A stretch of 57,946 nt of DNA from Psammoneis japonica (Eukaryota). The position numbers and the translations under genes were made by a program. The notes under the pieces are model-generated. The model saw only the letters and a list, made by a program, of their open reading frames with translations. It had not been told where the DNA came from and made no database searches. Where the stretch lies: NCBI GenBank assembly GCA_008632985.1, contig QPGO01000318.1:1-57946 (forward strand). The letters run 5' to 3'. Positions within the stretch are counted from its first letter, which is position 1; every line of letters begins with the position of its first letter. This document shows positions 6,201 to 57,946 of the stretch, in pieces.

Positions 6201-6608
6201 GATGCATTCCAGCTCCAGGTGGGACCTTGCACTGCCGCACTGTGACATGAGAGCTTTTTGGATTGTGCCACATGTTGTGTGCACACATTTCTGCATGCAA
6301 TCTTCTGCAAAATTCCTTCACATGCACCCCTGCTTTGCAAAGCCAAAGGCTTTCTTTTTTTCTCAACAGCAAAAACAAAAACAGGCTGGGTGCATTCTTT
6401 GACATCTGGAGAGCCCACCCAGGCAAACTGGAAATGATGAACTTCAAGTGTGGAGGAGGAGATGACTTTGCTGCCCAATTTTTGCCTCAATATCTGTTGG
6501 CAATTGTTCAGGTGTTTGTTGCTTGCTTGACAATTTTGCTGCAGAGCTCGCACACAGAACTCCATGGACCCATGTCACACAGAGCCTTGCCTGGGTCTGG
6601 AACATGTT
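6201..6608 (+). mobile_element. MITE copy 1 (TpA- and CpG-decayed)
   Basis: Colinear with 38030-38425 and 41132-41518. Ends are GATGCATTCCAG...CTGGAACATGTT, flanked by GTCT/GTCC (4-bp TSD with 1 mismatch). Confidence 0.85.
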
Positions 6609-7087
6609 GTCCTTCACAATGAGTCTCAGATGACTGACTGCCATGACTTCTGCCACATGCTTGCCAACCACCACGGCACAGAAAGCAATGCAACACCCAG
6701 CCAGTGCACATTGTGACAGGCAGAAGTTTCCACCAATGCAAAGGTGGCAACACCTGGGGAGATGTCAAGTGACTCACTTCAGAGCAGAGTGAAATGAAAG
6801 TCAAAGGCTGTGCTGGAACAAGATTTCTTCCCAACCAAGTCAATGGGATTTGCTCTGAGAACTTAGAGGCAAATTGCCAAAGAAAGTGTGACAAGGTTTT
6901 TGAGATTGTGGATCAGCAAGTTTCTCCAACTCTCTGAGGGGTGATGTCTTTGGGTTGCAACATCCAGAATGTGAAACATGCCAAGGAGAAATGTGCTGCA
7001 ACAAAGTCAGAGCTGCAGGGTTGGCACAGGGCACATTTGCCTGCAGCTCCCAAGGCAGCAACAGAAACATTTGAGCACCTTCCTGTG

Positions 7088-7090
<3 letters not shown>

Positions 7091-7137
<47 letters not shown>
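7091..7137 (+). repeat. (TC)n microsatellite
   Basis: Perfect TC run of about 23 units. Confidence 0.95.
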
Positions 7138-7142
<5 letters not shown>

Positions 7143-10100: not shown

Positions 10101-11464
10101 TCTCCACCTGGGTGAAAAAGATTGTCACTTTCTTTTCCAGAGCAACCTGCTGCCAACACTTTTGCTGATTTCCAAAGCACCTGCCCTCTGACACCTCTGC
10201 TGGATCATGCTGCTTGGGTTGCATGTTGTGTTGCTGGCATTTTCATTTGTAAAAGTCACCAGCAGCTGTCATCACAACATTGTTCATGTGAAACAAATGG
10301 CAAGCATGGCCAATCATTGTGATGTCCATTGCACGCAATTGTTGCACTTGAGAAATTTGAGTGGAAAATGCCCCCAGCACAATGTCCACACTTTCTCCCC
10401 CCTTGCTCTTGCCCCACCCAACATGGGCAAAGCAACACAATTTGTCCTGTTCTTGCTTCTCATCAAGAGGAACTTTGTGAAGGAAAGTCAGTGTGCCGAC
10501 TCTTAGCTGCTCTTTGATCTGGGATTGCACAGGAAAACAATGGCAGCAAAAACATTTGACACTGGTGCAGTGGGCTGGCAGTTGAGCACTTGTGGGGTGA
10601 GCAGCAACGAGCTTTTGTTGCTTGATTTTGATGCTTGTTGGGGGTCGTGCAGGGTGCCCATCCAGGGTCCTTGAGTCAGGGCTGGTTGTTTGAAAAAGAG
10701 ACTTGCTTGCTGAAACTTGCACTTCTGCCAAAAATCAAAACTTTTGTGGGCCCTCAATGTTGGTGCCACATGCCACCAGCAGACCTCATTGGTTTTTGGA
10801 CCATTGCAGATGGGCATCTCAACCCACCCACTCTTTCTGTTTTTCATTTGTTTTGCCTTGTTTTTAAACCCAAAGAAACTCACAAACTTGTTTTCTCCTT
10901 GTCTCACTTGAAAATTTGGGAGAACAACAACTGCTCCAACACTTTAGGGTCAACAACAAGAGCCAATCATGCTTGTCACACAACAAGCCAGCCTTTGTGT
11001 GGGAATTGAAGGATCAGCTGGTGGAACAGGAGACAGCCAAATTGACCCCAAAAGCAGGTGCCATCACTTTTTGTGGCTGCTGTCAAGAAACGGCTGAAAC
11101 CCAGCTGTGCATGGCTGACAGAAAGAGGCCGCACTGGCAATGGCTGCAAGGTGATGAATCCCATGAAAGCCCATGCAGACACCATTGCAAAGGCAATGGG
11201 CAAGTCATCGAATCGTCCAATGTGTCAAGGAGGGGCCCTGCAGTCCACCGGGGTGCTGACATTCTAACACATTGTGCCCAGCCCGGTGCGCTAAAAAAAT
11301 GCACACAATTGATTTGTGCCTCAATTCGTTTTGCAACAGTTTGCTCCTCATCAATTTCTCAAGGTGAAGAGACAAGATCACAACAAATGCCTGCAGTGCC
11401 TTTGCATGCATCTCTGCAGCAATGCAGCCCCAACCTCCACACATCGGGCATCCAACGCAGTCGC

Positions 11465-12868
11465 TCAGGATGGGCTTCCTTCCCAATCCGCCTCACCCAA
11501 ATCATCTTCATCAGCGTCGGCCTGGGCTCTCAGACTCTCATCATCACTTTCAGAGTCTGCGCAGGAGTCTTCATCGCTTCCACCTTCCATGTCACTTCCC
11601 TCATCATCTCCTTCAAAAGCTTCTTGAATGCCGGCAATCTCTTCCTCAAGGGCAGCACGTTGATCCCAAAATGCAGCCACGCGAGTTGTCGCCCACATGG
11701 AGAACACTTCGCAGGTTTTCTCGGGGACCACGCCAGCCCCCGCATCAGATTTTTTTTGTTCATCTGAGAGCCCAACAATTTTCTCAAGGGAATCTTCCTC
11801 TTGTTTCAGCTCAGCCTGCTGTTGCAAAAGTGGCCTGATCGCTTGGACAAAAGGCACAGTCGCCAACTTTGGAAGATCGTTGTTCACCTTGACGTGTGCA
11901 GCTTCGGGACATGCTTTCAACATGTCAATCACGAGCTCTTGGACTGGTCTCCTGTTGCATTGGCGGGCCAGGCAATGAAGTGGCAGTCTGCCCCCTCGTC
12001 GTGCCTTGGCACGGACAGCCTCGGGATTCTCTTGCATGAAAAAGCGGCAAATGCTTGCCCTGTTCTCCGTGCATGTGTCCACACCCATTTCATGGTGAAC
12101 AGGTGAAAGAGACTCACAGGCACAGCACAAAGCAGTCTGTCCCCACATGCCACAATGTTTCAAGCATTCGGGATGCTTCTCAACCATCCATTTCACCAAG
12201 CCTAAGTCACACTCTTCCCATCCCGAAACAACATCTTGCAACATGCCTGGGAAACATTTGTCGAGAGCTGCAGGCAGCAACTCCAAGACTCCACAAACAA
12301 CGGATGCCTCACAATCTCCATTGCCACAGTGTCAAATGAGGCCACATTCAAGTGTTCTGTGGTGGTCTTGAATGATGGTCGGGTGCTCAAAAATCCACAT
12401 GTGGCTCCGAGCAATCCAGGGCATCAAAGCACAATGTCCCGAGGCGATGCATGCCAGAGGGAAGCATTTGGAGCCCCATTTCCACAGCAAGGCATGCGGG
12501 TTGACATGGATCAGAAACTTGATGGCCTCATGAAGAATGGGATTCTGATGAACGCTCTCGCAAACCATGGTCAGCAAAGACCATCCATTTGCATTTTCTT
12601 GAACAGCTCCTCCGAAAATCAATCTGTTTTCTCCATTGCAAACAGCTCTTGCGAGAATCGGTTCATTGGCGACTTCTTGTGCGATGAGATTAAGGATCTG
12701 CTCTCCTGCTCGCTGGATTTCTTCCCGCACGTTGTTGGCTCAGAGCAAGATGAAGATGCGATCAAACAAATGCACGAATTGATTGCGCAGTTCAACTGGC
12801 AAATCTGAGTGACAGACAGGCTCTTGCACGTCTCGCCCTTGCTGTTCTCCGGTGCTTTCATTGGACAC
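11465..12868 (-). pseudogene. Pseudogene of an ankyrin-like (LPLH-repeat) protein with acidic C-terminus
   Basis: Three in-frame ORF pieces are separated by TGA at 12740 and 12332. Motifs GQTALCCAC, RLPLHCLA, EKHPECL and KACPEAA are present. No Tyr occurs in the 273-aa or 132-aa segments. Confidence 0.7.
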
Positions 12869-13765
12869 AGTTGTTTGGTTTGAGGGTGGATCTACGTGCT
12901 GCAGTCTGTTTTTTGGGAGCTCGTAATTTTTATAAAAATGACCCGGATGCATCGTAGCAAATGCGCGCGCTTTCGCAAAAAAGAAATTCAGCGATCGGTC
13001 GAACTTTGTCCGTTCGCCAGACACCCCAGAATGCCCAAACGACAGGTGTGGCCATGCGCAACTTTTACCTCAATGACTGCAGACATGTCTGTAGCCAGTC
13101 AAATGCCACTTGTCGGCATTTCCCAGAAAGTTGCCGCTAATCTCCCACAAGAAGCCCGATTTTAGCGAAAATTGGCAGTTTTTTCGACCTGACAACAGGG
13201 CATGGGTCGACAAGTGGCATTTGAAGCACCAAATGTGCAGCTCTTATAGCTGTCTAACAGCCCCTGTGAGGGTTTGACGAACACATAAGTGTTCGAGGGT
13301 GTTCCGAGGCAGGTCAAAATGACACGGTGAAGTGTGGGAAATGCGAGCCATTTTAAATTAGACCGCAGCACGCAGATCCATCCTCAAAACAGCGCAAAGG
13401 CCACTTGGACTCGTTGATTCTGTTTGTTCGTTTGTGTTAGGAGAGGACGGGGGTGATTCGATCGCAACAACAACAACAACAACAATGATGATGGTGGCAA
13501 CGGCCAAAGTTTTGAGTTTTGGGGTTTTTTCTGCGGGAGAAAAGCAGCCGCGCGCCACGCGCGCAGCGCCGCGCCCGAGCGCTCCTGTCCGTCACACGCG
13601 ATGAAGCAAAATAACCTTTTTAAATAGGTACGTAGATATGAATGAACACAAGTATCATTTAAAATACTTCGTGAATGATGAATGGCATTGATTTCTGCCG
13701 ACCTGTTGAACCGCAACCGCCCACCGCGAACAGAACAAAACACTGACACTCGATACACTCGCGAT

Positions 13766-13838
13766 GACACCCGAGAAAGCGACAGCCGTCTTTGCTTGTA
13801 CTCTAACCTGCCTTTCAGTTTTCCTTACACCACTACAG
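13766..13838 (+). repeat. 73-bp dispersed repeat, copy 2
   Basis: Matches 1529-1601. Confidence 0.9.
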
Positions 13839-13921
13839 CACGATTAGCCCGTTTGAGGAAGCTGCTTCATGTCATAAACTGAGTGGAGACTTTCGTTCTC
13901 CTTATTTTATTTTCTGAAAAA

Positions 13922-30289: not shown

Positions 30290-31580
30290 TTCTAAATTGA
30301 AATCATTGGTGTGGGCTCTGCAGGATTTTTGTGCACTTTTGCACCACCAGAGAACAAAACTTGATAAATTTTGACTTTGGGTTGGAGATTGGGCAATTGC
30401 TCAAAGTTTTGCAGCATTGTGTTTGAGCATGTCTGCTCCAACTTGCCATTTTTGAGCAGCGCACATTGTTTTTGAACAATTGCCTTGCACAATTTTGAGC
30501 AATGGGCGAGCACTTTCCCAAAACACCACTGAAAAGCCATCAAAAGCAATCTCAGTGCTGCAAAATTTCCAACTTTCTTGTGCACGGCCAGCCACCAAGC
30601 AGAGAGCACCAAAAAGCAACTTTTTTTGCATTTTTGCATTGCAGCCACTTGCTCCATGTTCACAAATGCACAAGTTGCTGGCTGGCACCCCAGAAATGAT
30701 CATTGAATGCCTGCCAAACAATCGTGCCTCACGTGCCAAGCAAAAAGTCCAAGGAGTGGGTGCTCGTCAGTGCAGCATGCTTCCCTGGTTTGGCGGCATG
30801 TTCCACGCGGCATGTCCAGCACCAAGGAAGAAAAAAAGGGAGCAAGTGGGTGCAAGAACTGTTTGACTGCATTCTTGGCCATGCTCAGTGGAGACAACAT
30901 GAGGTCTCACCTTGATGCAAAGGCAGACACAGTGAAATCTCTCAAACTTGAAGCTGTTGAGTTTGTGCAAAAACAAAAATCACGTGGAGACTGTGTGAAA
31001 AGACTCAACCTTGGCTTCTTGCTTCTTTTCAGGACAAAATCACTTGGCAGCAAACAACATTGTGAAAAAGGAAGCCAGAAACAGCACCAAAAATGTGAAT
31101 CACCTTGACAGAGACAACGGCAAAAGACAGCTCACTCTTGCAATCATCCTCTGCAGCTTGAGTTGGCAAATTTAAGAAATTTTTTCACATGTGGTGCCAC
31201 CCCATTTGCTCCAGCCAAAATGCAAGCAACAACAAACTTGATGAATCTGATGAAAGCGTGCAGAGCTGTTTAATCATTGCCTTGTTGAGCAGAGATGACA
31301 ATGTGGGGTCTGAACTGCTGCATGAAAAGTTGAGTGTCTCTCTCACTCTGAAGTTTTTCTTTTTGTGAAAGGAAATGTTTGCACAGGCAGTTGGAGAAGC
31401 TCCACCTGTGTGTCTCTTTGAGGCAACCTTGTTCACATGAGGAGGAAAGAATGAGGCAGCTCAAGGCCTGCAGGACTCTGTGAGACACGTGCCACCTAAA
31501 TGGCAAACATGACTGGGGGTCTCACCTGGATGGGAAGACGGATGACAATGGCTCTGTCAAAGAAGCTGCTTGGTTTTTTG
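30290..31580. other. TpA/CpG-depleted block B (unidentified degenerate repeat)
   Basis: Abrupt loss of TA between two normal genes; the survivors are mostly TTA/TAA. Confidence 0.8.
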
Positions 31581-31802
31581 AAGAGAATTACATGCAGCAG
31601 TTACAGAATGCGACTTGATCAGGCTGGAAAATGATGCATTTATGAACTTCCGTACACGCAAGAGACAAAGCTAGCGCAAAAGCAGCATGGTAACTCATGA
31701 CCAAGATGCTATTTAATTTCGTCTACACTCTGACAAGCATGAGTCATCTTTTTTACGCACAGCTGCAGCATTCGTCATTCCCAGGCGGTCAGCCAACAAT
31801 TT

Positions 31803-35172: not shown

Positions 35173-35560
35173 AAAAGTGGGTCTCTGCTCTTCAGAGCTG
35201 GCTGCAGACAGTTTTCGTCATTAGGCGACTTCTAAGGAGACATTTCTCGAGACTAGTCCTGGAAAGAACAATGTAGTACTACTATAGATTGGATTCGTAA
35301 GATACTACCTAATTCATCACCTTAGCTTTGCAAATCGCCACCTGTTCATTTGCATACAAGGCAAAAGTCTTACAAGAAAAGCATTAGTTTCCCGCAGTCA
35401 TAGTTCTAACTCAACAGTAGTGTACGGCTGCTTCCAAAGGGTTCCTACTAGAGGCTAGCTAGAGCTAATGCCACTTGGATCAGGACGAGTGCGTGCCAGC
35501 GAGGACGCTACCTAGCGAAGTGCGTACCGTACGACAGACGTGTGACGTCAGACCGTGGTT

Positions 35561-37750
35561 CACGCCCATCTCATTCTGGGCAACCCAACTGCGGCACTGT
35601 TGACAATGTCTTGCACATTTGCAATGCAAGCAGACCCGTCTGCTCCCCCTTTTGTGAATCCATGTCCTGCTTTAAGGACAGTCAAGAATGGACATGCTTT
35701 GGGGCTTGCACATGTTTGGTCATGATGCTGCGCTGGGCACAGCAGGCTGGGATTTCCGCCGCCAATTGAACTTGCACATTCTGCAATGCACCAAGTGGCT
35801 TGTCAGTTGGGTTGCTCTGGTCAAGCCAAGAAAATGGGACAATTTCAAGGAGAACACCAACCCAGCTGTGCAACACAACTGGGTGCAGACAAGAGAACAA
35901 TGAGTGTGAGCATGGGCACTTTGTGCCTGCCAAATCAATGCTGCTGGTGGTCACATCTGAGAATGACAACTGTCCAGGTCCGATGCCCATCTGTCTGGCA
36001 CACCTTGGGCGCAAATTTCCAAACTTCAACAAGTCTGAAGCACATTGGGAAGCTCATCTCTCCTGGTTGCAGGCAAGAACAGGTCAGCATGCCGCTGACA
36101 GCATCGCCCACAACAGCAACAGTGCCAGTGGACGGCATGGTGTCACTTGCCAGCCCACAGCTGACCAAACTGCCAATGATTCCTGATGCAAGATCTAGAG
36201 CCAACTGTGGCATGACAGCTCCACTTTTGACAATTCTGCAATTTGTGCAGTGACATGGCATGTCTTGAAGGCTGGAGCTCTGCTTGGAACTTTGTTTTGC
36301 AGATGGTTGACCTGCATCAAATTTCACTCATGATGGCAAGCCATTTAATTTGGAAGTGGCATGCACAACTGCTCTTTCTCCATGGTGATGTCTTCCTTGG
36401 CTGTGTCAATGTCAGGGCATCTGTCTCTTCATTGCAGTGCCTGGCATGCCTTTCCAAGGCAGATGCTTCTGGAGCACATTGCACAGAGCTGTTAGGTGTG
36501 TTGCCCGATGTTGCGGGCCACCTGCTGTGCTTTTCTGGCAGCTCCCTTCTCAATTGAGCAAGCTGTTTGCTCTTGCTGATGAACTCCAAGAATGAAGCTG
36601 GCTCCACTCAATTGTCTGTTTGTTCAAAAAATGCAATGAGATCTTTTTGATGATGCCAAGAACATCTCTTGTGGCTGCCATGTCTTCACAACATTGCACT
36701 GCACTTTGAGCAGCCTTGCAGCACTTGCACCAGCCAGCTGAACAAGGAAAAATGATGCGACACTTCTTCTTAAAGGGGCAGAAGAAGTGGGGCCTTCTTG
36801 AGCTGGCCAAAGCTCTGAAAATGAAACCCTTTGGCTTTTGCACTTGCACTGTCAATGCTCACAACAAGTGAATGATCACGCAAGGCAGGAGAAAAAAAGC
36901 AGGCCAAAAGGGGGTGGAGATTTAACCAAGACAACTTTGCTCTGTTGGCTGTTTGCTTGTGAGCTGCCACCAGCATCCTGCAACAACAGCACTTTGTCAA
37001 TGGCAGTGTTGTTGCTCTTGCATTTCCAGATGGACAGCAACATTTTGCTTGCATCACACTGGGTGGCACAACTCCATCATCAACAACAAGATTGTGGTGC
37101 TTCATTGTCATTTCTGACAACTCAAAATCTCCAGCCAGCTCTCCTGCAAAGTGAGTCATTCTCACCATTGTTTGCATGAGGCTCAAATTGCAGCAAAAAT
37201 AGAAAAGATTGTTGCCACCACAACCCACAACAAAACAGACTGCAAGTTTGTGTGCTGAGGTCCACCACAAGGAATTGTCTTTGCCAACAGAGTTGTTGTG
37301 ACTTGACATGAGTGGAGTGTGCAGGTGTGAAGTGCTCTCCTTCTCTTCTTGCTCTGTGACAGCACTGAGAGATTTTGCTGCTGTTTTGTTGCTGCAACAA
37401 TGGCAATGTTTGCCAGTTTGTGTTTCCGACACTGCCCAAGTTAAAACCACATTGACGCAAATCATCAGAACATTCGGTTGAGAGAGGCGCACACGAAAAT
37501 CCCGCATTTTTGCCTCTGAGGCACAGTGCAGCACAGCACTCAATCAGGAAGGGGTTGTCCAGTGCCCATGCACTGCCAAGGCACAAACAACAAATTGTGA
37601 AGGAGGAGACTGCCATGCTGAGCAAGGGCAATCATCTTGCTAGAACCCCACCACCCATTTGAACACACCACCACCACGACAAACAAACTTGTCCCCCTCC
37701 TGCTTGACTCCAACTCGCACAATTAAGTGCTGAGATCCATCCACAATGAA
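35561..37750. pseudogene. Hypermutated inverted duplicate of 48390-50553 (3' parts of the aspartic protease and phosphatase/LRR genes)
   Basis: Colinear reverse-complement match. Donor gtatatttacaatgcgag becomes gcacatttgcaatgcaag, and donor ELAGDVELSE becomes ELAGDFELSE. The donor intron is retained. Confidence 0.93.
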
Positions 37751-37759
37751 CCCCAACAC

Positions 37760-37990
37760 ACAAGGTTGACAATGCTGTGTGGGTTCTACTTGGCAGCCAC
37801 GAACACCTTTCTTTTCTTTTTTCAGTGGTGGATTTTGCACCAAATCTTGCTCCACACAAAGAAATCGCCCTCGCTCCAAATTTTTTGACATTTTTGCCAT
37901 GCACACAAGGTTGACACTGCTGCGCAGATTCTTTTTGATGGCCGCGAACACCTTTCCTCCGTTGCACCGTGGTGGATTTTGCACCAACTT
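37760..37990 (+). repeat. Degenerate tandem pair with a ~144-bp period
   Basis: CACAAGGTTGACA...GAACACCTTTC...GTGGTGGATTTTGCACCAA occurs at ~37760 and ~37904. Confidence 0.75.
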
Positions 37991-38029
37991 TCTGTGCACA
38001 TCATCCCAGTGGCTGCGCATCATTCCCAC

Positions 38030-38425
38030 GACGCGTTCCAGCCCTAGGTGGGAGCTCGTAGTACTGACGTGTGACAACAACAATTTTTATCATCCGTCGT
38101 ATGTTTCGTACGTAGATTTCTACGTGTGATATTAAAAAAAAATTGTCCAGACTCGCTGTTTTGCGAAGCCCCAGAAGTTTTATATAACAAATTTATAGAA
38201 ACAATAATGCGCCAGTTACATTCTTCAATGTCTGAAGAATGTAACTGGCTAAGTAAAAAATGATGTACTTCAATCATGTGCGAGTTTGTGCGTTCGCAAA
38301 ATTGCCTCATTTTCTGTTGGCGATCATTGACATTTTAATTACCGTATAATTTTACTACGGAGCTCGCACGTAGAAGTCTACGGGCCCAATGTCACACGGA
38401 TTCCCACCTACGTCTGGAACGCGTC
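38030..38425 (+). mobile_element. MITE copy 2 (not TpA-depleted), inserted in the 5' LTR
   Basis: 24-bp imperfect TIRs GACGCGTTCCAGCCCTAGGTGGGA and TCCCACCTACGTCTGGAACGCGTC; TSD CCAC on both sides. Confidence 0.92.
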
Positions 38426-38512
38426 CCACTTAGACTGGGATCTCTGTCAGGTTGTGAGCAGCGTTTGCGCTTTGCGCAAATGAGGCCCCTCCACCGACCA
38501 ACGACTTGACAC

Positions 38513-40979
38513 ATGCACTCCTCTCTCTTGTCATCAATGCCACCAAAGACCGCTTTGCAAGCAATTTTTGCCGCCATTGTGACAGCAACGTCTCTGCCGC
38601 AAGCGCTCCTCATTCTTGCGCCATTGTCATTTGCATCTGCTGCTGCCACTGCAGCTTTCGGCATCGGCTCTGCGCACGCATTTTGTCCAGTGCGCCTCCT
38701 GACACCTGTTGCCCTCCATGCTGCACAGCCCCAACTCCGCATCTCCAACACTGTGGCGCCTGCGGAAAGCACCCGTTCTAAGACGGCCTCGTCTTGGTGG
38801 GAACGGATGTCCAACCTCCAAGCGGCTGTCTCTCCCAATGCAGCATCTCCTGAAGCTTCGTCCACTCCTGCGGGCACCCCATCCATGAGAGCATCTGTTG
38901 TGGCAGCTGTTCGGGATGCTCTGCAACCTCATGCATCAACTGCTGCTCCAGTTGATGCGATGGCAGCAACTTCCCCACCTGCACCTGTGCAACAATCGGC
39001 TCCTCCTGCAATCTGTGCCCCGCCACATGACACACCGGCACCATCGCCTCCACCTTGTTTGCCTCCTCCTTCAGCTCCGAATTGGCCTCACTCTCCTCCG
39101 GTCCCCAATGAGGAACTTTTGTGGGGCTGTCGGGTTCAACTGGAAAATGATGCAGTGCAACTGCATGACACCCAAACTGCACACACCAATGCTGCCACCA
39201 AAATCTGCTCTCTTCACAGCAAGGTGCAGTCCCACCGTGCCCTGACTGAACAGACCCGAATGGATGTGACAAATGTTGCGACCACCAGTGCCATTGATGC
39301 GCCAAGCCAATCTCTGGAGAAACAGATGCAAGCCACCAAAGAGGAGGCTTTGGCAATGGCTGGTGACATCACTGACTCCACCATTGCCTCCCGAGACAAT
39401 CAATTTGTTCAACTCTTGGATGAAAATCTTGCACCTTGCATTGCCGAAATCAAAAACGAGATTGATGCTTCTGAGGCCACCGTGCTGCAGCACCTGAAAC
39501 GGACCTCCCAAGATGAAGAACAATGCATCACCGCAGTCACTGCTTCCCAGATTGAGGCATTGGAAACGGCTGTCTCCAATGCAACACACACCCTGGGAGA
39601 ACTCGCTGGCTCTGCTCACACCAATTTTCAAAACCAGATGCAAGGTGATGTCACCAAACATGCAGAAGAGTTTGACATTGATCCTTGCTTGATTGGATGC
39701 CACTAAAGCTGCAGCCAAAACCGTCATTAAAAACAGCCTTGAAGTGGCGGCGACCATGACGGGTTCACTTGAGGACTGTGAGAAACTGCTCCCTTCCCCC
39801 TCCTCTGACACTGCTGCTGCGACTCAACTCCTGGCGGCTAAATGTGTCATGCAGGATGACCTTGCAGACACCCTTCGAACAGAATTCGATGGCGTTAATG
39901 CCCAGCTGCTCGCCCAAAACAACTCCATCCGATCACAGGAGGAACGTGTTCAGACTGCTGCCAAAGTCTCTGAGGCTGCTCGTTGTGAAGTCTCGGGCAT
40001 TCGGAAGGATCTCCAGGCTTTTAAAGCATCTGCCCCACCACCCACCACCCCATCCTTCCCTGCGGGCCATGCAATGTCGTCTCCGGACCCGTCCGATGGG
40101 GCCAGTGCTCCAGATCCTGACAGCATTCCTCCCACCCTTGCAGTGAAACTCACCACGGTTTTGGACAACATCATCAACCGTCTCCCTGGTGCCAATCCCA
40201 CCTCATCCTCTTCTGGTTCACCGTTGGCCTCACTTCTCTCGTCAGGTAAATCCTCTGGCTCCTCCAGCTCTGAACGGTGCCACAGCAGTGAAACGTTTCG
40301 CGAGACCCCGGGCCCCTGTCTCTGAACTGTGGAACCATCCGATGTCGTCACGTTCCTGAAGGCCTTCCACACTTGGTGCACCCAGACGGGTGTCCCCATG
40401 CATGACCCTGACACCCTTGCAAGGGATCAATCAGATTTCTGCAACCCCATGCTCGTCAGCACCATCCAACGCCAGAAGTGCACCATTGACATTCATGCCA
40501 AGCTGATCCAAGATGATGTCCTTCTGGATCATTGCCTGTGTGATGGCTGGAAGAAGATCTGCACAGCTTCTGTGGATGGCCATGCCATTCTGTCTCATCT
40601 GGCCGCCATTGGTCTTCCAGCACTCACCGGCAAAGTCGCTGAACCTCCTGCATGGAAAGGTGGCCTGTGCGAACTTGTTGCAGATTTTACCACCTTCTTT
40701 GCAGTGGCCGATGTGGCGGCTGCCACAGTGGATCCGGCTGCACCTCCGGCGCACTCGGACAGGAACAAATCTGTCAAGTTGCTGGACTCGATTCCGGACG
40801 GCCTCTGTGAATTGGTCCCCCTCCTCAAACACTGCCTCCGTGAACTTGGAGAATCCTCCCCACCACCACATGACCTGCATCTTGTCTCCTTGATCACTCA
40901 GATTGATCCAAAACTTGCCTCCTCCTCGGATCCAGCCGGGTCTCTTCACGCATTCCGAGGCCGCTTGCAACGCCCATGA
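38513..40979 (+). pseudogene. Disrupted gag-like region of the Copia element
   Basis: Long Pro/Ala-rich and coiled-coil ORF pieces directly after the PBS. All pieces are Tyr-free. The assignment is positional. Confidence 0.55.
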
Positions 40980-41131
40980 CCCTCGTCTTCTACGGACAGA
41001 CAGACACACGCATTTCAACATCGCAAGGACCTTGTCTGGGATGCTTGTGGTGCATTCGGACGTGGCCACTGTGATTGCTCTCAGCTTGCTTGTCATGCTC
41101 TGCCAATGGATTTTGTCAAGAACCACACGGA

Positions 41132-41518
41132 GACGCATTCCAGCTCTGGGTGGGACCTTGCACTGTTGAACTGTGACACAATCATTTTTTGTCATCCGTC
41201 GCATGTTTTGCACACACTTGTTCTGTTGTGAAAAATTGTTCCACACTGCCTGTTTTGCGAAGCCAAAGGCTTTCTGCCATCTGTGTTTGTGACAATAAAA
41301 ATGCACTGGGTGTGTTCTTTAACATCTGAAGAACACACCCGGACATGCTGCAAAGAATGTGCTTCAAGTGTGGAGGAGGAGACACATTCGCAAAATTGCC
41401 TCTTTTTCTTTTGCAATCATTGATGTGTCCATTGCTTCACAATTTTACTGCGGAGCTCGCACGCAGAATTCTGCGGGCCCAATGTCACAAAAAGTCCCAC
41501 CTGGGACTGGAACCCATC
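41132..41518 (+). mobile_element. MITE copy 3 (TpA-decayed, CpG partly kept), nested in the Copia element
   Basis: TIRs GACGCATTCCAGCTCTGGGTGGGA and TCCCACCTGGGACTGGAACCCATC; TSD CGGA at 41128-41131 and 41519-41522. Confidence 0.9.
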
Positions 41519-42122
41519 CGGACAAAGTGTCTTCCATCATCTCCAAGTGGCGCTCACACAACCAATGTCACAAGGACACACCGCGTCCTGTGGTGCGTGC
41601 CTTCTCATCCGATGCGTCGGACAAGATTCTTGATTTCATGATGGACGAAGCCGCGTCTGACCTGCTGTTTGAGTCCAACGCATCCCCGGATTTTCAGTGA
41701 GCCAACTGTGTCCATCTCCCACTCACAGCGAACGGCTTCACAATGACAGCGGGGCAGATGATCGGGGCACTTCCATGCCTCTGCCTTCCGCTGAACCACC
41801 GATCCCTCCTTTGACATGTCGATCTTTTGCATCTGCGATTCCTCTGCCTGCTGAACTTCCCGACTGGACTCACTTGGGCCGACCTCCCAATCTTGTCTCC
41901 ACCAACTTGGACTCTGCATCATCACACTCCATCCCCGATGATGACTCCTTGTCCATCTCTGACGAATCCTGGGCCACGGCTGTCAAAGAGTTTGCCGATG
42001 ACCCCACGGCTGTGTTGCGTTGCTTTGATTGTCAATTTGAGTCTGCGGAGCCCCCATCTCCACCGCTGCCCATCACCGCACCCCATGACTGTGTCTCCCA
42101 ACCACCACAGGCAACTTCTCCC

Positions 42123-42713
42123 ATGGAACTCACTGGATGCAAGGACTCTGATTGGGCCGCTGACATCCGCCACCGACGCTCCAATGCTGGCATTGCCTCC
42201 CCACTTGCTTGCGCCGCCATTGCTTGGAAGACACGAGTGCAACCCTCCACATCCACATCATCCTCAGAAGTGGAATTCACCGCTGCCTTGGATGCTGGCA
42301 AGGTGGCTTTGCACCTTTGCTCAGTCCTCGATGAACTGCCCGTGTCGCAAACACAGGCTGCCCTCACGTGCGAGAACAGCGGTGCATCTCGGATCTCTCG
42401 GATGATGGCCAACGCCAGCCAACCCACCAGACGGACCCGCCACATCGACATTCGCCACTTTGCACTGCAGAATTGGGTCAAACAAGATCTTGTGCACATG
42501 GAAAGGATTGACACTGCCTCGAACTGCAGCGACACACTCACCAAGAACGTTCTGCGCATTCTCTTCTTTCGACATTTGGGCACCCTCACTGGACGTCATC
42601 CCCCATCCTACGTTTTAGATAGCAGCAACGACACGCCACTACACTGTTCACTAGAAGAACAGTGCTCCCACGGTAGATGGGCTCACCATTCTCCTAGCAT
42701 GGGGGGGTCTTAG
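42123..42713 (+). pseudogene. Copia RNase H domain remnant
   Basis: LTGCKDSDWAADIRHRRS...IAWKTRVQ...SSSEVEFTAA...TRHIDIRHFALQNWV...NCSDTLTK. Confidence 0.9.
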
Positions 42714-43021
42714 TGGCTGCGCATCATTCCTGCTTAGATTGGGATCTCTGTCACATCATGCGTCATCGCTCGCAGAAATTTTTTGATTTTTTTGCCACGC
42801 ACGACTGATGATCAAATATTATATTCGAGTCTTAATGTGGAACATACCCGGTTGCGCTTCGTTCGTTGTTCTCCTCATCGCCACGAATGCATTGCTATTT
42901 TATTTGAAAGGCCTTATTACTTCCCTCTCTGGCTTTATTTCCTCTCGCCACTCTCGTCGCCTGGAGATCAGTGAACGACATAACATTGCTTTCTATTCTT
43001 TTTTCATAATCCTCATTGGAA

Positions 43022-44829: not shown

Positions 44830-46940
44830 TTCACTTTTAACAAGATGTTCCGCAGGTGGGTGGAAAGCCTTCGGAGCACCCTTCTGTTGATTTGAGCCCA
44901 CTCTTCACAACAAGGCTGTTGTTTGTTGCACTCAGCAGCACAAACATTGGGTGGGGGTAATTTGCCAACAAGGTGAGGGTGAGCAAGCATGGGTGAATCA
45001 TTGGGTTGGTGAAATCTCTTGCTGTGCCAACAACGCCAAAAAAAGAGCGCTGGCTGCAGAAGCTGCGCTGTCTCTTCCTGCCTGCAAATGCTTTCATTGT
45101 CAATGTCTTCTCAAGAAGTGCAGTGAAAGAGAATGTCATTTGGCAGATCAAGGCTTTGCTCAGGCCAAATTGAGAAGACACAAGTGTGTCATCACAAAGA
45201 ACAGACCGCAGCCAGCGCCGCCATTGTCTTTCTTGTGCAGAGCTGTTTTTGGAGCATGTTCCTGCTTGCTCTGAATGAGTCCAGACACTCCATTGTTTTT
45301 CTGTCAGCATGACAAAGTCAAGCAATCAGGCTCTCACATTGTTCCAGAGAGATGAACCTCACCTGTGGTGTGTCAACAATTCTCCATTGTGACAGCAGCA
45401 GCACCACCAGCTGCCTTGACAAATGTGAGCGGTGGGCCAGTCATCCACGCCACCCATTGCTGTGGTTCCTTGCATGGGTGGGTGATGTTGCTGTGAAGAA
45501 GAAGAACCCAGCAAAGGTGCTGATGCCAGCATGGCCTTGGCTCTGCAGTCTGAGTGTGATGGGGTGCCCGTGCACGGAAGATTTTCCTGCCAAAGCCACA
45601 CACAACCCAGTGTCTCCTGCCACCCCCTGAGATGCTCTGAGAAAGTCATGCAAACACATCATGTGCTTTTGCATGCAAAACACAAGGTCTGAGAGTTGGT
45701 GTTTGTTTGTCTGCGATTGCCCCCCACCTTTCCATGAATTTTCTGCACCAAACTGGTGCCACAGTTTTTACCACAATGCTGCATGAAAAATGATTGATGG
45801 TTGAGAGAGCTGCTGCTTTTCCCCAGAGCTTTGCTTGCTTGCAAAAAAAAAGGCCTTCAAAACAAATTTGGCAGTGCCTGACAGTCACTTGCCATTTTGA
45901 GCTCTGAGCTGCATGAGGGAAGCATGGTGGAATCTTCTGCCCACCCCATTTTTCAGATTTTCCATCATCATCTTCTCCACGCAAAACAAACTGTCTGAGA
46001 TCTGAGAGCTGTTGCAAGGAATTTTGAAAAACTGACTTTCAGCAACCTGGGCTTTATGTTTTTCTAAGGCCAGCAGCTCAGAAAGAAGCTGCACATTCTC
46101 CTTGTCTTTGTTCACGTGCTGGGCCTGCTGCACCTTGCCCTGTGATGCTGCAGCAAAACATTTTGCATTTTGCCTCCCCTGAGTGATGCCCCACTGTTGT
46201 GATGGTTGTTGTTGTTGCTGACAGGTTGTTTCATGAAAAAACCATTTGTCCAAGCTCTTCTCTTAGAGAACTCACAAGGAACAAGCTCTGAAGCTGCTGC
46301 TTGCAGCTCTTTTCTTTGCACAGGGGATTCCAAGCAATGCTCACAACTCTTGCACAAAGCTCTCCTCATCTTGACACATTGACCAAGACAGCAGTTGCAT
46401 GGCCTTCCCACTTGCCAACAACAAGAAGCAGGTGCTGACAACAAAGCCTCACCTTGGTGGAAGAAAACAAACAAAACAAGTGGCATGACAATGAGCCATG
46501 CGTTCTGTTTGCAGAAGAGGTGTGATGGTTTCCTGCTCCAGCCACCATCACAGACAGCCTTCTTTGGCACCATGTCATTCTCTCTCCTGGCAGACAAGCA
46601 CGCATGATCTGAGCAGCAACAAAAGTGCATGTGACAATTCTGTGTCACAATTTGTGAAGTGATTCGCAACAAGCAACAACATCATGTTCACAGCTTGTCT
46701 CAAATTGCAGAGAAAGGCGCTGCAATCTGAAAGGGCTGTTTTTTGTTGTTCTTTCTTCTTGCACCACCCATGCACCGCAGCAGCAGTGTGGTTGCATGTG
46801 AGAACACCACTCATTCTCCCAACAAACACAGCTCTGATGCAGCTGATGGTGGTGGCTGCAAGACCATTTGTCCTGCTGGGCGCAGTGGTGAGGCCAACAG
46901 TGAGCGCGGACAGAGAGGGTGTGCCGGAGGTTCAAGGGAT
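44830..46940. other. TpA/CpG-depleted block D (unidentified degenerate DNA)
   Basis: TA is nearly absent except in TTA/TAA contexts; overlapping Tyr-free ORFs occur on both strands. Confidence 0.85.
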
Positions 46941-47221
46941 GACTTTCTTTTATTCTGCGACCTTCCAACAGAGAAGTCATCACTGTTACATGCTGTTCCG
47001 CGCCGCCGCTTGCCAATTGCGTACGGCAAGTAACTACGGCTGGGCCCCTCTCTCTAGTGGCTAGCATGTAGAGAGAGAGTATAGAGTCTAATGACCAACA
47101 ATCGCGAATCCATTTTTTATTTTGCGCACCACTGCTCCCGCCCGGAAAAAGGTTTTCCGCCTTTTCCTGATCACCTGCCTGCTGCCGATTTTTGCCCAAA
47201 TACCGAGGCAATGGTGAGGTC

Positions 47222-49074
47222 ATGACTTATGCCGCCGCCGCCATGACAACTACAACCACGAGAACAACACCAGGACACGCAGCAGTATCCATAACGTTAG
47301 AGCCAAGAAATGAGGTTTCCAGACAAGAATTATTCTGGCGTCAAGCAAGACATTTTGCTAAGCGAAGGCGAGCTACAATTTCTCAGAGCGAGAATTGGAG
47401 AACGGTGCGGCTACTCGAAAACGAGAACAACTCATCAGCGACGACTGTTCCTTTATCGAATTGTCACTTGTCTCTATGGACGGGTGAGATTGGGATTGGA
47501 ACACCACCACAGAAATTTACAGTCGATTTTGATACGGGCTCTTCCGTCTTGTGGGTTCCCAGCGCGTTGTGTGATGATTCCTGCATGACTGAGTGGAACA
47601 AGTTTGATGCTTCTCGCTCTTCGACCTATGCTTCCAATAAGGAACCATTCCAACAATCCTATGAAGACGGTGAAACTGTACAGGGAATTTTAGCGACAGA
47701 TGTCTTGTCCATGGGTTCGCTGCAAGTACCAGAGCAATTGTTTGCACAGGTCTCGTCTCTGTCGCAGTTTCATGCTTGTGCCAGTGAAGAGGGCGTGATT
47801 GGATTGGCCTTTTCCATCAAGTACGAAAACTCGTTGCTTTTGAATTTGGCGCCGCATCTCAAGCATTCCATGTTTGGATTGTATTTGAATCCAACCAATG
47901 ATTATGGATTAGAGGGACAAGCACCGTCCAACAACAAACAACCGAGCGACGTGGCTGTGCAGAGCCACTCGGAACTGGCACTGGGTGGAATCAATCCATT
48001 GCACTATGAAGGGTGTCTGCATTGGCATGATTTGGGGCAGTTTCAGCTGAATACAGGAGAAACCTTTCGTGGCTACTGGGATATCAAGTAAGTGCTTGTT
48101 GAAGAGATTGCTTTTGATTCCTTCCTTTTTCGTCACAAGTTTCCGTTTTTTTTGGCAGATTGCAAGCGGTCCAGGTCGGCGGTACCATTTTACCAAGCTC
48201 GAATTTTTGCTTGGTTGATTCCGGTTCCACCTCCATTGTCGGTCCTCGAGAGGCGGTGGGAGCATTTGCTCGTGTCAATAATGCAGAATGTTTTGAGCAG
48301 CAGGGAGAAACAAACAGTAGGGTAGATTGTTCTTTTGCCTTTGATATAATCGCGGTGGATTGCGATCAACCTCTCTTTTCATTGGACTTTATTGCGGATG
48401 GATCTCGGTATACCTTGGAAAAGGAGGATTTGATTATGCGAGTTGGAGTCGAGGGCGAGGAAGAAGTTTGTTTGTTGCGCGTTCAAGGAGACGACGGGAT
48501 TCCGGTAAGAGCACGCTTGCTCAGTGTGGCGGCTTCCTCCTTTATTATTCATTGCTTACATCTCACTTTATGGTTTTGTTAGGGATGGGTGCTGGGTGAT
48601 CCCTTTCTGATTAAGTATTACGCTGCATTCGACTTTGGTAATAAACGTGTGGGATTTGCACGCGCCTCTCAACACAGTACCGATTCGTGTCCGGATGACT
48701 TTGAATTGAGTATCGGAAACTCAAACCAGCAAACACCGCCATCACTACAGCCACAGGATAGCAACCCTCTAATGCCATCGCAACAAGAAGAGAAAGAGAG
48801 TACTTCAGATCATGTCTACGTTCCACCTGAATCAAGTCACCATAAGTCCTCTGATGAAGATGATTCCTTGTGGAGCGCAGCACACAAATTTGTAGTCGGT
48901 TTTGTTATCGTGGCAATATTTTCTATTTTCATTACAATTCGAGTTCGTAAACGACAACGAGAACGACTCATGATTCAGTTTGCAGAACTGGCTGGAGACG
49001 TGGAGTTGTCGGAAACAACAACAGAGCATCAATTTACGATTGACGATGAAGCCGTGCCACCCAGTATAATATAA
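47222..49074 (+). CDS. A1 pepsin-family aspartic protease with C-terminal TM anchor, 3 exons
   Basis: IGIGTPPQKFTVDFDTGSSVLWV, VDSGSTSI and LGDPFLIKYYAAFDFGNKRVGFA; introns at ~48089-48158 and ~48505-48582. Confidence 0.92.
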
Positions 49075-49315
49075 GCATAACATACATTATCATCCAGCTA
49101 GAGAGGTAGGTAAGGGTAATAATGAATAATGCGCTATTAATCTAGTCTCGTTAGACTGCTCTGCCAAGATAAGGAGGAGATGCTGATGGCATAGCTCGAA
49201 CTGCGAAGCAGAGCAAACACGCATGAAATCCCTATCCTTTTTGCTTTGCTGCTCCCTAATCACACGCTCGCGAGAATTAACAATGCAAGTAAGGGTATCG
49301 TTGTCAGAGCATCGA

Positions 49316-50191
49316 TCAAGAAGGTGCTTCTTCTTCTCCCTCTACAAGAAGAGTTGCCGTATCATTTTGCCTTGCGCAATTGGTGCAATTGCTATACGGT
49401 TGTTCAAAGTATGACGTAATGTTGCGAAGACATGGTCCACCAGAAATGTTGGTTCCATTCAAAAAGATCTCATTATACCGTTTCGAACAGACAGACAATG
49501 GAACGGATCCAGTCACATTCTTGGAGTTCATCAACCAGAGCAAACAGCCAACTCGATTGAATAGGGAGCCACCAGAAAAGCATGGCAGATGGCCTACAAC
49601 ATTAGGCAACGTACCCGACAGTTGCGTGCGTTCCAGAAAGGCATACCGGGTATTGCGAGGAAGAGACAGATGCCCTGAAATGGACGTAGCCGAGGAAGAC
49701 CACGGAGAAAGAGCAACCGTGTGTACTCTTGGCAACGCCTTTTCCAAATTAAAAAGCTTACCATAAATAAAATTCGACGAAAGGTCGATTATCTGCAACG
49801 AAGTTCCGAGAGCTCTAAATGCATCTTCAAGATGTGAGATATCCCCGCTCAAATTGTTGGACGCCAAAAGTAGAGCCGTAATGCCGTAGTTAGCTCCAGA
49901 TCCTGCATCGGGGAGCATTTGGTCCACTATAGGCTGGCAAGTAACACCATACCATCCACAAGCATTGTTGCTGTCGGTGATGCTGTCAGCACCGACCCAT
50001 CCTTTGCTGTGTAGCCAGGACGGACCTCCCAGTGTGTCGTAGATTTGTCGGAGCGCGGCAACTTGCTCCCAAGGTACACTGGATGATTGGATATCCAAAC
50101 CTCCATGGATTTCATTGTCGGATATGACAATTGTTCCGACTGGTAACTCCCGCAAGCGTTGATTTCGCAGACATGAAACGTCCGTCTTCAC
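49316..50191 (-). CDS. LRR domain (LRRNT plus plant-type LRRs); likely the C-terminal part of the phosphatase gene
   Basis: ALRQIYDTLGGPSW...CGWYGVTC and LASNNLSGDI; overlaps the upstream ORF by 80 bp. Confidence 0.75.
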   Translation of the reverse strand: MKTDVSCLRNQRLRELPVGTIVISDNEIHGGLDIQSSSVPWEQVAALRQIYDTLGGPSWLHSKGWVGADSITDSNNACGWYGVTCQPIVDQMLPDAGSGANYGITALLLASNNLSGDISHLEDAFRALGTSLQIIDLSSNFIYGKLFNLEKALPRVHTVALSPWSSSATSISGHLSLPRNTRYAFLERTQLSGTLPNVVGHLPCFSGGSLFNRVGCLLWLMNSKNVTGSVPLSVCSKRYNEIFLNGTNISGGPCLRNITSYFEQPYSNCTNCARQNDTATLLVEGEEEAPS

Positions 50192-51791
50192 GTTCGTTGT
50201 TCTCTTGTCGGTATTCGGTTGTGGGCACGGCTAGGTCGTCGCTATCCTCCTTGAAATCATCTTGTTTTCTGGGCTTGGCTAGAGTGACACGATGAGCTAT
50301 TTGACGCGTTGCGGAATGTACAAATTCAATCGTAAGAATCTCGTCAGTCTTGGTGGCAGGCCCAACCGACAGCGTAGCATGACCAAACATGTACGAGCGC
50401 CAAAGTGTCCATTCCCGACTGTCCTCAAAGTACGATGTGGATTCGTAATTGGAGGGATTACCAGCCACCACGTAGACGGGTTTGCTCGCATTGTAAATAT
50501 ACGAAGCATTGTGAACAGCGCTATAGTCGGATTGGTTGAACGAGACGGGCGTGGTCAGTTCCATATTGTGAACGTGTCCAGCAAAAACCGCATCCACCTG
50601 ATACTTGTGGAACACTTCCTCAAAGGCATCAAAAGGCTTGGAATCCTTTTCTGGATCACCCCAAGAAGAGTAGGATGGACGATGATAATGAACAACAATC
50701 CAAGGATACAATCGTCGCATCGTCGGAGAAGTGGCTTTTCTCAAATCTTGAACGAGCCATTGCATCATTCTAACTTTCATTTCGGGAGGTAAGGACGGCC
50801 AATACCCCAAAAGTTCCGAGGATAGCGCAATCAAATGCATACCACCGCCCGTAGCACCGTTGCGATTGCTGTTGCTTTCGCTACCACCGACATTGATGGA
50901 GTACCAGTGATTTCTGCAAAAGCGTTCCTGACCTGGGTTGCAGGGCATGAAGAAGCGATTGTGATAGTCGGAGAAGCTATTATAGGCTTCTCCATTTCCC
51001 GGCGAGACCAATAGGGGAGCAATCCTTGTAGTGACTGTCTTGCTTGTAAGTCTAGTACCCGTACCGGTGGTCATGTCTGACAAGTTTTGCATAAACCAAA
51101 GCGTATTTTGACGGTGATGGGTGACGTTGGTGTCGGATGTTTCTTGTCCCCAATAATAGACCATGTCTCCAAAGAGTACAATGGCATCCAAATCACCCTG
51201 ATCCAATTGCGCTCTTGTTAAATGATAGATTTGATTGTTGGACCATCCCAAATCACCAAACATGCTCAGCCGAGGACATGTCGTGGATAGTAAATTGGTG
51301 GCTTGAAAGATTTTCTGACACGGTGCTGTGTCTAAATGGATCTTTTCATCACCAGTAGTTGAAGTGTTGAAGTGGTCGTAGAGTAGCCGAAAGTAAATTT
51401 GTGTTTGCCCTTGAAACGGTAGGGTAGTATTGTGGATGATGGTGACGACCGTAGAGTTCTTGTCATTGAAGTCTGGAGACAAGAAGGACGTGGCGTCACT
51501 CTGAAAGGTCAGCTCTTGGTCCTTGTAACCCCACTGAACTCCAGCCCATGTTTTTGATGCATGGCTCCGGTGAGAAACATTTCCGCTATCATGTAAATGG
51601 ATTATAGTATTCCAGCTCACCACAAGACCATCCTCGCCACCATTACCAACATTGCTCTTCGCGGCAGGTGCTGTCAACACATTCCGGCAGAGGTGGAACT
51701 CGTTGCTTTGATTTTTGATTCGAGCAAAAGCAAACGAGACCGCAAACACCAGCAGCAACAGTGAACAGAACTTGCAAGATTTAAACAGCAT
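50112..51791 (-). CDS. Secreted purple-acid-phosphatase-like metallophosphoesterase
   Basis: Signal peptide; motifs FGDLG, GDMVY, PGNGE, HYHRP and FAGHVH. Confidence 0.88.
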   Translation of the reverse strand: MLFKSCKFCSLLLLVFAVSFAFARIKNQSNEFHLCRNVLTAPAAKSNVGNGGEDGLVVSWNTIIHLHDSGNVSHRSHASKTWAGVQWGYKDQELTFQSDATSFLSPDFNDKNSTVVTIIHNTTLPFQGQTQIYFRLLYDHFNTSTTGDEKIHLDTAPCQKIFQATNLLSTTCPRLSMFGDLGWSNNQIYHLTRAQLDQGDLDAIVLFGDMVYYWGQETSDTNVTHHRQNTLWFMQNLSDMTTGTGTRLTSKTVTTRIAPLLVSPGNGEAYNSFSDYHNRFFMPCNPGQERFCRNHWYSINVGGSESNSNRNGATGGGMHLIALSSELLGYWPSLPPEMKVRMMQWLVQDLRKATSPTMRRLYPWIVVHYHRPSYSSWGDPEKDSKPFDAFEEVFHKYQVDAVFAGHVHNMELTTPVSFNQSDYSAVHNASYIYNASKPVYVVAGNPSNYESTSYFEDSREWTLWRSYMFGHATLSVGPATKTDEILTIEFVHSATRQIAHRVTLAKPRKQDDFKEDSDDLAVPTTEYRQENNEREDGRFMSAKSTLAGVTSRNNCHIRQ

Positions 51792-57935: not shown

Positions 57936-57946
57936 TTTTCTCGTGT

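Follow-up and report, generated by a model that had tools for sequence, protein, structure and literature searches.

The inverted duplicate and its donor genes

The window analyzed here is the stretch from position 1 to 57,946 of contig QPGO01000318.1 of Psammoneis japonica (GenBank assembly GCA_008632985.1), and all comparisons among its parts, including the searches for duplicated partners, were made within it. It carries two convergent genes and an inverted duplicate of their 3' parts, from which the dinucleotides TpA and CpG have almost completely vanished, whereas the donor copy retains an ordinary composition. The duplicate lies in one of five sharply bounded islands of the window that share this purged state (Table 1). 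Both donor genes code for recognizable proteins: the first is a metallophosphoesterase of the purple-acid-phosphatase type with a leucine-rich repeat (LRR)-like tail (Pfam Metallophos, 5e-9; Metallophos_C, 7.8e-7), and the second, separated from it by a 244-base spacer, is a pepsin-like protease. A single relative, 29% identical, was found in the protein collection for the open reading frame (ORF) of the phosphatase.

Both are also represented in contigs of the sequencing run X3. These span 49313-49664 and further in the phosphatase gene, and one 1756-nt contig over 47212-49116 omits two GT..AG introns of the protease gene, namely 48088-48158 and 48504-48581, the latter lying inside the duplicated part. 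A third intron, at 44074-44167 and reading CT..AC (minus strand), is confirmed by the same kind of skip. The label of X3 indicates a probable DNA run, whereas in these clean intron skips it behaves like RNA; it gives no cover on the islands and is uninformative about silencing. In a further run, X1, the summed contig depth climbs to 86-142 over 48675-50942 of the donor region and a one-base deletion at 49904 is present in about half of the depth, which suggests that two alleles of this region were assembled apart.

A BLASTN comparison of the window with itself recovers the duplicate in two pieces: 35561-36831 aligns with 50553-49291 read as reverse complement, at 67% over 1340 columns, and 37043-37433 with 49080-48709 read likewise, at 68%. 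As transitions leave the purine/pyrimidine class of a base unchanged, we also used seeds written in a two-letter purine/pyrimidine alphabet. These yield a single unbroken inverted cluster relating 35603-37728 to 48428-50512, which accounts for 167 of the 403 inverted seeds of the window; the real sequence has 102 direct seeds besides, against 26 direct and 78 scattered inverted ones in a shuffled control. A global alignment with transition-tolerant scoring extends the relationship from 35569 to 37770 against 50553 to 48375, with the spacer covered, at about 72% nucleotide identity and 94% purine/pyrimidine identity (1469 matches, 449 transitions, 113 transversions and 69 indel events), while an unbiased MAFFT alignment counts 410 transitions and 144 transversions.

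The block is hence a DNA-level, reverse-complement copy, as the preliminary description of this DNA had held, with the donor reaching about 15 bases beyond the limit of 48390 given there; the sequence changes quoted in that description, along with the protein-level changes of WYGVTC to RHGVTC and ANYG to ANCG, are all found in the alignments. Its statement that an intron had been copied is right for intron 48504-48581, the presence of which in the copy shows that the latter was made from DNA. The intron that it had in mind, at approximately 49675-49766, is skipped by no contig, although it is a plausible intron of the donor.

The copy is a dead pseudogene fragment, because 48 of the 69 indel events are not multiples of three and none of its three ORFs has a Pfam match. 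Like the pseudogenes that arise by segmental duplication, it is an unprocessed, partial gene duplicate in which the source intron and flanking non-coding DNA are present and the reading frames are broken. Unlike them, its decay is not neutral-looking, with about 97% of two specific dinucleotides gone. There are 10 TA and 22 CG in its 2202 nt.

Table 1. Coordinates of the features discussed. Class A islands are without TA and CG; class B islands are without TA and retain about half of their CG.
Feature	Position	Strand	Remarks
Island 1	4601..12890	.	4601-11000 class A; 11001-12890 class B
Island 2	30300..31590	.	Class A
Copy-bearing island	35560-38029		Class A
Island 4	38441..42605	.	Class B: TA-free, CG observed/expected ~0.56, GC 54%
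Island 5	44850..46990	.	Class A; fills the gap between two expressed genes
Purged inverted duplicate (pseudogene fragment)	35569..37770	.	Alignments, seed search
Copy part: 3' part of phosphatase-LRR gene	35569-36830		
Copy part: spacer	36831-37039		
Copy part: 3' part of aspartyl-protease gene, antisense	37040-37770		
Donor segment	48375..50553	.	Ordinary composition; 109 TA and 120 CG in 2179 nt
Donor gene 1: purple-acid-phosphatase-like metallophosphoesterase, C-terminal LRR-like tail	49316..51791	-	ORFs, Pfam
Donor gene 2: pepsin-like aspartyl protease with C-terminal tail	47171..49074	+	Pfam Asp, 8.4e-36
Unmutated MITE-like element	38030..38440	+	Terminal inverted repeats starting GACGCGTTCCAG; between two islands
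Purged MITE copy	41132..41519	+	In island 4
Purged MITE copy	6201..6603	+	In island 1
Ty1/copia polyprotein C-terminal (RNase H) relic	42048..42623	+	Protein homology

Substitution spectrum of the copy and state of the donor

Tabulation of the substitutions by dinucleotide context, which the preliminary description had proposed, reveals that TA and CG have nearly all become TG or CA in the copy. In the transition-tolerant alignment just 2 of 94 donor TA are kept, with 40 converted to TG and 40 to CA, and 5 of 108 donor CG, with 47 converted to CA and 35 to TG. The MAFFT alignment gives 2 of 84 TA kept (34 TG, 34 CA) and 4 of 103 CG kept (44 CA, 31 TG). All remaining dinucleotide types are retained at 40-72% in the former alignment, and MAFFT agrees; measured against the approximately 52% dinucleotide retention expected from the overall identity, the losses of TA and of CG each have P ~6e-27. 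Even the few TA present in the copy are mostly new, as a donor TA lies opposite just 2 of the 9 (MAFFT).

The conversions at CpG are strand-symmetric changes to TpG or CpA, as in methylation-driven CpG decay; however, the non-CpG dinucleotides have not decayed at a common background rate, as TA loss is equally full and came earlier. In the MAFFT alignment, 115 A>G and 115 T>C changes (230 together) exceed the 101 G>A and 79 C>T changes (180), and with A:T>G:C outnumbering C:G>T:A the G+C content remains steady at 48-49%. By trinucleotide, the A>G rates are 0.32-0.63 at TAN, 0.23-0.32 at NAY and 0.07-0.17 at NAR, and the C>T rates 0.26-0.53 at NCG, 0.35 at TCA and 0.04 at GCA. Adjacent double changes are also seen in the copy (transition-tolerant alignment), with CA replaced by TG in 21 of 137 cases and TG by CA in 20 of 146.

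The donor displays none of this. Its observed/expected ratios are 0.70 for TA and 1.02 for CG, as opposed to 0.07 and 0.17 in the copy, and they fall within the background range of the 148 non-island 500-bp windows (TA 0.56±0.14; CG 0.98±0.16). In the donor non-coding sites, i.e. intron 48504-48581, spacer 49075-49318 and the putative intron 49675-49766, there are 31 TA and 17 CG in 414 nt, whereas the corresponding stretches of the copy have 2 TA and 1 CG. The asymmetry is accordingly not explicable by selection at the protein level, and the earlier observation that the donor keeps TA in intron and spacer is borne out, with no trace of mutation at these sites.

Purged islands across the window

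The five islands, delimited from dinucleotide profiles, total 18,357 of the 57,946 bases (32% of the window). Over 500-bp windows the TA ratio is bimodal, with 0.05±0.04 inside the islands (n=63) and 0.56±0.14 outside them (n=148), where its minimum is 0.26. The island boundaries are sharp to about 30 bases. The left purge edge of the copy's island coincides with the left end of the homology within about 20 bases, and the intergenic DNA upstream of it is rich in TA and CG; to the right of the copy the purged state continues into other transposon-derived DNA.

The islands are of two compositional classes. Class A, which includes the copy, has observed/expected ratios of 0.04 for TA, 0.14 for CG, 0.73 for AT and 1.35 for GC; class B (11001-12890 and 38441-42605) has 0.05, 0.56, 1.03 and 1.08 for the same dinucleotides; and the background has 0.56, 0.98, 0.94 and 1.03. 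As TA is gone from class B while half of the CG and 72 of 95 conserved columns of the Copia relic described below remain, TpA loss is the first and fastest step, and the decay of CpG and the drift of purine-pyrimidine (RpY) steps to GC come later. The residual CG of class A is enriched after G (75/192, against 900/4176 in the background), which fits the low C>T change at GCG and GCA.

None of the island ORFs scanned has a Pfam match at or above the curated cut-off of a family, and a protein atlas gives them a weak RVT_2 lead (0.85, 17% of members). For islands 1, 2, 4 and 5, purine/pyrimidine seeds detect no partner in the window besides the trio of small elements considered next. Island 4 has a strongly negative GC skew (-0.13 to -0.22) at a G+C content of 54%, and its plus strand has long open frames of 398, 210, 217 and 346 aa, with homology detectable in the last alone; such frames are expected there, since TAA and TAG cannot occur.

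An element of about 410 bases, resembling a miniature inverted-repeat transposable element (MITE), occurs three times in the window. The one between two islands is unmutated, with 31 TA and 30 CG in a 501-nt slice. The copy in island 4 keeps 0 of 30 TA (14 now TG, 9 CA) and 9 of 25 CG, and that in island 1 keeps 0 of 31 TA and 0 of 25 CG. In X1 the summed word depth reaches 73,432 in the bin of the intact element, against 35-60 in the adjoining bins; though word depth is not copy number, the family is on this account probably very abundant and recently active. A possible CCAC duplication flanks the intact element.

Sharp edges and a uniformly odd composition are also what might be expected of foreign, for example viral, DNA that had been shaped by avoidance of TA and CG elsewhere and was then integrated. 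We hold such an origin to be extremely improbable: the copy has the same arrangement of genes, spacer and intron as this locus, with a purine/pyrimidine identity of 94%, and MITE copies belonging to the host are purged as well where they lie within islands.

The frame of 346 aa in island 4 holds part of a Ty1/copia retrotransposon. Residues 126-317 of ORF 41673-42710 match the C-termini of proteins of 1000-1600 aa; 11,892 proteins match the relic at E<=1e-3 in phmmer searches, and the best match over a single stretch reaches 1.4e-48 and 56% identity. RVT_2 is found in six of six long hits tested and integrase-related domains in five, so that the assignment is based on homology to a polyprotein C-terminus next to RVT_2. 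As the window ORFs scanned include neither an integrase nor a reverse transcriptase upstream of it, the element is only a relic. For its long terminal repeats (LTRs), just 27-33-base similarities were found between 37878-38456 and 42728-42802. Immediately to the right of the inverted copy, units of about 87 bases at 37757-37843 and 37902-37987, 78% identical to each other, stand in tandem; this zone and the pieces at 42728-42802, which lie to the right of the relic, may be LTR remnants.

Comparison with 71 Copia homologues reveals how the relic has changed beyond its 72 retained columns: where 63-90% of the homologues have tyrosine, the window has histidine (CAC), cysteine (TGC) or tryptophan (TGG), and where 92% have arginine it has cysteine (TGC). 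The sole tyrosine kept is at the island edge, and the purge stops at 42605, at the last conserved residues of the relic. In five of the six long relatives (P0128, P0130, P0134, P0140 and P0146) a dUTPase domain lies between the integrase and the reverse transcriptase. Such a domain is unusual for Ty1/copia elements and is possibly linked to a uracil- or deamination-based pressure from the host.

Relatives of this Copia element in metagenomes, identified with a 5-sequence alignment, decay differently: at 0 of 80 loci does any 600-bp window have a TA ratio below 0.15, while several loci are CpG-poor with normal TA (e.g. CG 0.06 with TA 0.59). CpG decay is common in such elements and the TpA purge is not. 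These loci bear directly on whether ordinary slow decay of non-functional, CpG-methylated DNA could suffice, with no separate process at TpA. The copy is indeed old (69 indels, transversions at about 5%), methylated repeats are expected to lose CpG, and the CpG-poor Copia loci elsewhere conform to that expectation. Such decay alone nevertheless seems very unlikely to us, as it is contradicted by the class B islands, in which TA is gone with half of the CG and most of the conserved Copia residues kept; moreover, the loss of TA is no less complete than that of CG, gene introns and spacers retain TA, and none of the 80 related loci lose it, the CpG-poor ones included.

Direction, authenticity and persistence of the changes

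The direction of change follows from several comparisons. Both donor genes are intact, bear their domains and are seen in spliced contigs; the MITE with TA and CG is the form matched by very deep contigs; and it is the conserved tyrosines and arginine of the Copia homologues that are altered in the relic. By these sequence comparisons TA and CG are the ancestral states, and TG and CA the derived ones. The window offers three internal natural experiments of known direction (gene fragment versus donor, MITE family, Copia relic), which render the spectrum measurable without an outgroup.

Contigs of X1, built independently of the window assembly, reproduce 35231-35851, 36140-37067 and 37241-38058 with no differing letter at word depths of 32-36, and the first of them crosses the left junction of the copy. 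As X1 may be the source sample of the window, this agreement rules out an artefact of the window consensus and is not independent biology. A technical origin in the broader sense, with modified bases misread or TA and CG systematically wrong in the consensus, would account for the affected letters being those that modified A or C would yield and for the disagreement of window and run contigs at TG/CA steps in island 5, and X1 could be the very data with which the assembly was polished. Yet three independent contigs match the copy letter for letter and its differences from the donor include transversions and 69 indels, and we accordingly give this explanation very little credence.

Between the window and the X1 contigs there are 77 differences, of which 40 are listed and provide the figures given here. 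They fall mostly in island 5 and also in part of island 4. Transitions make up 23 of the 26 listed differences inside islands and 6 of the 14 outside. Ten rows of the island differences are five adjacent TG<->CA pairs, and eight more make or break a CG or TA. One differing contig continues from an island into a neighboring unique gene, from which it follows that this contig is allelic rather than paralogous. The process is probably still acting in place and, if the differences are alleles, TA and CG newly arisen in islands are short-lived.

Asymmetry and relationship to known hypermutation systems

The preliminary description attributed the asymmetry of the two copies to their location rather than to homology pairing. 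In support of this, four islands with no partner in the window share the purged state and the MITE between islands is normal, and the asymmetry is indeed better explained by where each copy lies, or what kind of DNA it is in, than by pairing. A reading by location alone is, however, incomplete, because the left purge edge is the edge of the duplication and the neighboring intergenic DNA is normal; what is targeted looks to be the inserted DNA itself rather than a spreading neighborhood.

Repeat-induced point mutation (RIP) of ascomycetes, in terms of which that description had framed the case, is a homology-triggered process that produces only C:G>T:A changes, chiefly CpA>TpA so that TpA rises, and hits both copies. 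Heavy transition mutation of duplicated and transposon DNA, sharp edges, a dead copy and a dinucleotide signature are common to RIP and the islands. Here, on the other hand, TpA is destroyed to near zero, A:T>G:C changes are no rarer than C:G>T:A, the donor has escaped mutation and a MITE from a family of seemingly high copy number is spared, and the framing cannot be maintained. A RIP-like, homology-triggered process of another kind, perhaps premeiotic and perhaps based on DNMT4, would require that mutated donor alleles were removed by selection. The match of the left purge edge to the duplication edge would fit it, as would the fact that whatever could be identified in the islands is repeated or duplicated DNA; and DNMT4 relatives of the fungal RID, with no known function, are recorded for 31 of 60 diatom species (PMC9998398). 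We regard it as unlikely nonetheless: its direction is wrong, with TpA destroyed rather than made, over half of the transitions are A:T>G:C, the 31 TA in the non-coding sites of the donor are beyond the help of selection, and the most repeated element seen is the unmutated MITE.

The conversion of CpG to TpG or CpA in silenced repeats is shared with the CpG decay of vertebrate repeats and with the CpG-directed RIP-like hypermutation of basidiomycetes (Horns et al. 2012, PMC3318451). Neither of these is known to remove TpA, whereas here its loss is earlier and fuller than that of CpG. Both kinds of transition are on the other hand shared with hyperediting of the replication intermediates of retroelements. 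There, APOBEC enzymes convert C to U on cDNA and ADAR enzymes A to I on double-stranded RNA, with ADAR preferring an A after U, and the changes fall on a single strand. In the window the change is strand-symmetric rather than the strand-asymmetric change of a retro-copied sequence, and a DNA transposon and an intron-bearing genomic duplicate are affected too.

A single burst of ADAR- or APOBEC-like editing of an RNA or cDNA intermediate, with the block inserted already purged as a passenger of a Copia element, would explain the coincidence of purge edges with those of inserted DNA and the untouched donor, and the intact element is a DNA transposon, as that scenario would have it. A Copia relic is also close by, and the dUTPase of its long relatives hints at uracil-linked pressure on the clade. 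This scenario too appears improbable, since an intron lies in the block, as does the spacer between the convergent genes, TG and CA products are equally frequent (40 and 40) rather than skewed as in single-strand editing, the two island classes represent steps separated in time, the window-contig differences in island 5 have the same spectrum, and 113-144 transversions with 69 indels speak of long residence. The RIP-like and editing explanations each account for the sharp left edge and fail on strand symmetry, on the non-coding sites of the donor or on the two stages.

Mechanistic interpretation

We consider it fairly probable that a domain-restricted, strand-symmetric process removes both self-complementary pyrimidine-purine (YpR) steps from silenced or foreign DNA. 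The sequence comparisons show the copy and its spectrum, the domains, the direction and order of the changes, and the normal state of the donor. The block is an old segmental duplicate, in inverted orientation, of the 3' parts of the convergent gene pair, and it borders a cluster of transposon relics. It shares with the relics of Copia and MITE elements a location in sharply bounded domains, in which, under this interpretation, transitions would arise in place. TpA would pass to TpG or CpA through A:T>G:C on either strand and CpG to the same products through C:G>T:A on either strand, with weaker additional changes of A>G at ApY and C>T at TpCpA. The sinks would be TG/CA and GC, such that G+C content would hardly shift. 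Loss of TpA comes first and is fastest, followed by decay of CpG and a drift of AT, AC and GT to GC. The donor, as ordinary expressed gene DNA outside such domains, would be spared, and pairing between the copies would have no role.

The domains would be silenced, cytosine-methylated chromatin, the CpG component would be deamination of 5-methylcytosine, and the TpA component would be a further step, linked to that mark and driven by an enzyme or a modification. Methylation of this kind is known from diatoms: transposons of P. tricornutum are CG-methylated via DNMT5a (PMC9998398). Two routes to the TpA step were rejected. A WA signature of the Pol-eta type is out, as A>G at AAN (0.07-0.26) is no higher than at CAN or GAN. 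A deaminase acting at equal rates on all YpR steps is also out, since the flipping of about 15% between CA and TG would predict approximately 70% retention of TA, as against 2%. With these excluded, a TpA-specific modification or deamination in the same domains remains, and our guess is that a modified thymine is read as C or a deaminated adenine as G. There are precedents in deaminases of dual A and C activity and, among other protists, in the hydroxylation of thymine at TpA.

Several points weigh against the proposed domain-restricted process. We know of no chemistry for near-total A:T>G:C change at TpA in DNA, and the silenced status of the domains is itself something that we infer. The coincidence of the left purge edge with the duplication edge would equally fit recognition of inserted or duplicated DNA, or mutation before insertion. 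An intact MITE between islands implies a process that is slow or episodic relative to insertion, or blind to that element. The partner search for the other islands was confined to the window; the transition-tolerant alignment overcounts transitions (449:113 against 410:144 by MAFFT); and the window-contig differences, of which 40 of 77 are listed, may be alleles, strain differences or assembly errors.

An active genome-defense editor might also be entertained, as a tentative and somewhat doubtful possibility. Acting in this diatom lineage on the double-stranded chromosomal DNA of silenced or foreign domains, it would convert the amino bases of YpR steps to their keto partners one strand at a time, namely the A in TpA, the C in CpG and sometimes both in CpA, with the consequence that TA and CG would soon be erased while TG and CA would keep flipping into each other. 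If true, this would be the first natural system of A:T>G:C hypermutation of DNA, and a defense that is independent of homology pairing and leaves G+C content unaltered.

Returning to the domain-restricted process as such, if it is real and enzymatic it would represent a new kind of natural DNA editing and could provide a function for unexplained diatom enzymes such as DNMT4 or members of deaminase or dioxygenase families. It would also furnish a compositional marker of silenced diatom DNA with an internal clock, in which TA goes first, then CpG, followed by the RpY drift. Fungal RIP is a known region-restricted defense and CpG decay a known passive loss in methylated genomes. In full-text searches of literature outside subscription journals we found no description of a joint purge of TpA and CpG, with TpA erased by A:T>G:C, in diatoms or elsewhere.

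Other features of the window

The window also codes for a gene with a helicase-associated (HA) domain and for LRR genes (Pfam). The window is eukaryotic and resembles diatom DNA: for a CCT-theta ORF there are 770 relatives at E<=1e-3, and among the 120 listed, those that are named come from diatoms, at no more than 60% identity. On the minus strand, 17431-19563 is an ORF of 711 aa that encodes four HMG boxes and contains DNA repeats at 17905-18913. Also on the minus strand, an ORF at 57222-57944 that runs off the window has a weak match to 2OG-FeII_Oxy_4 (9e-6), below the curated cut-off; the 2OG-Fe(II) superfamily includes base-modifying dioxygenases, and this ORF has no link to the islands.

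Finally, a 73-base stretch ending in CTACAG occurs on the same strand at 1529-1601 and 13766-13838 (97% identical). Scans for tRNAs and with Rfam gave no hits in the window, and the stretch matches no family. Its second occurrence sits about 45 bases upstream of an ORF at 13883. The stretch may represent a 5' leader common to both places, the end of an intron or a promoter module.

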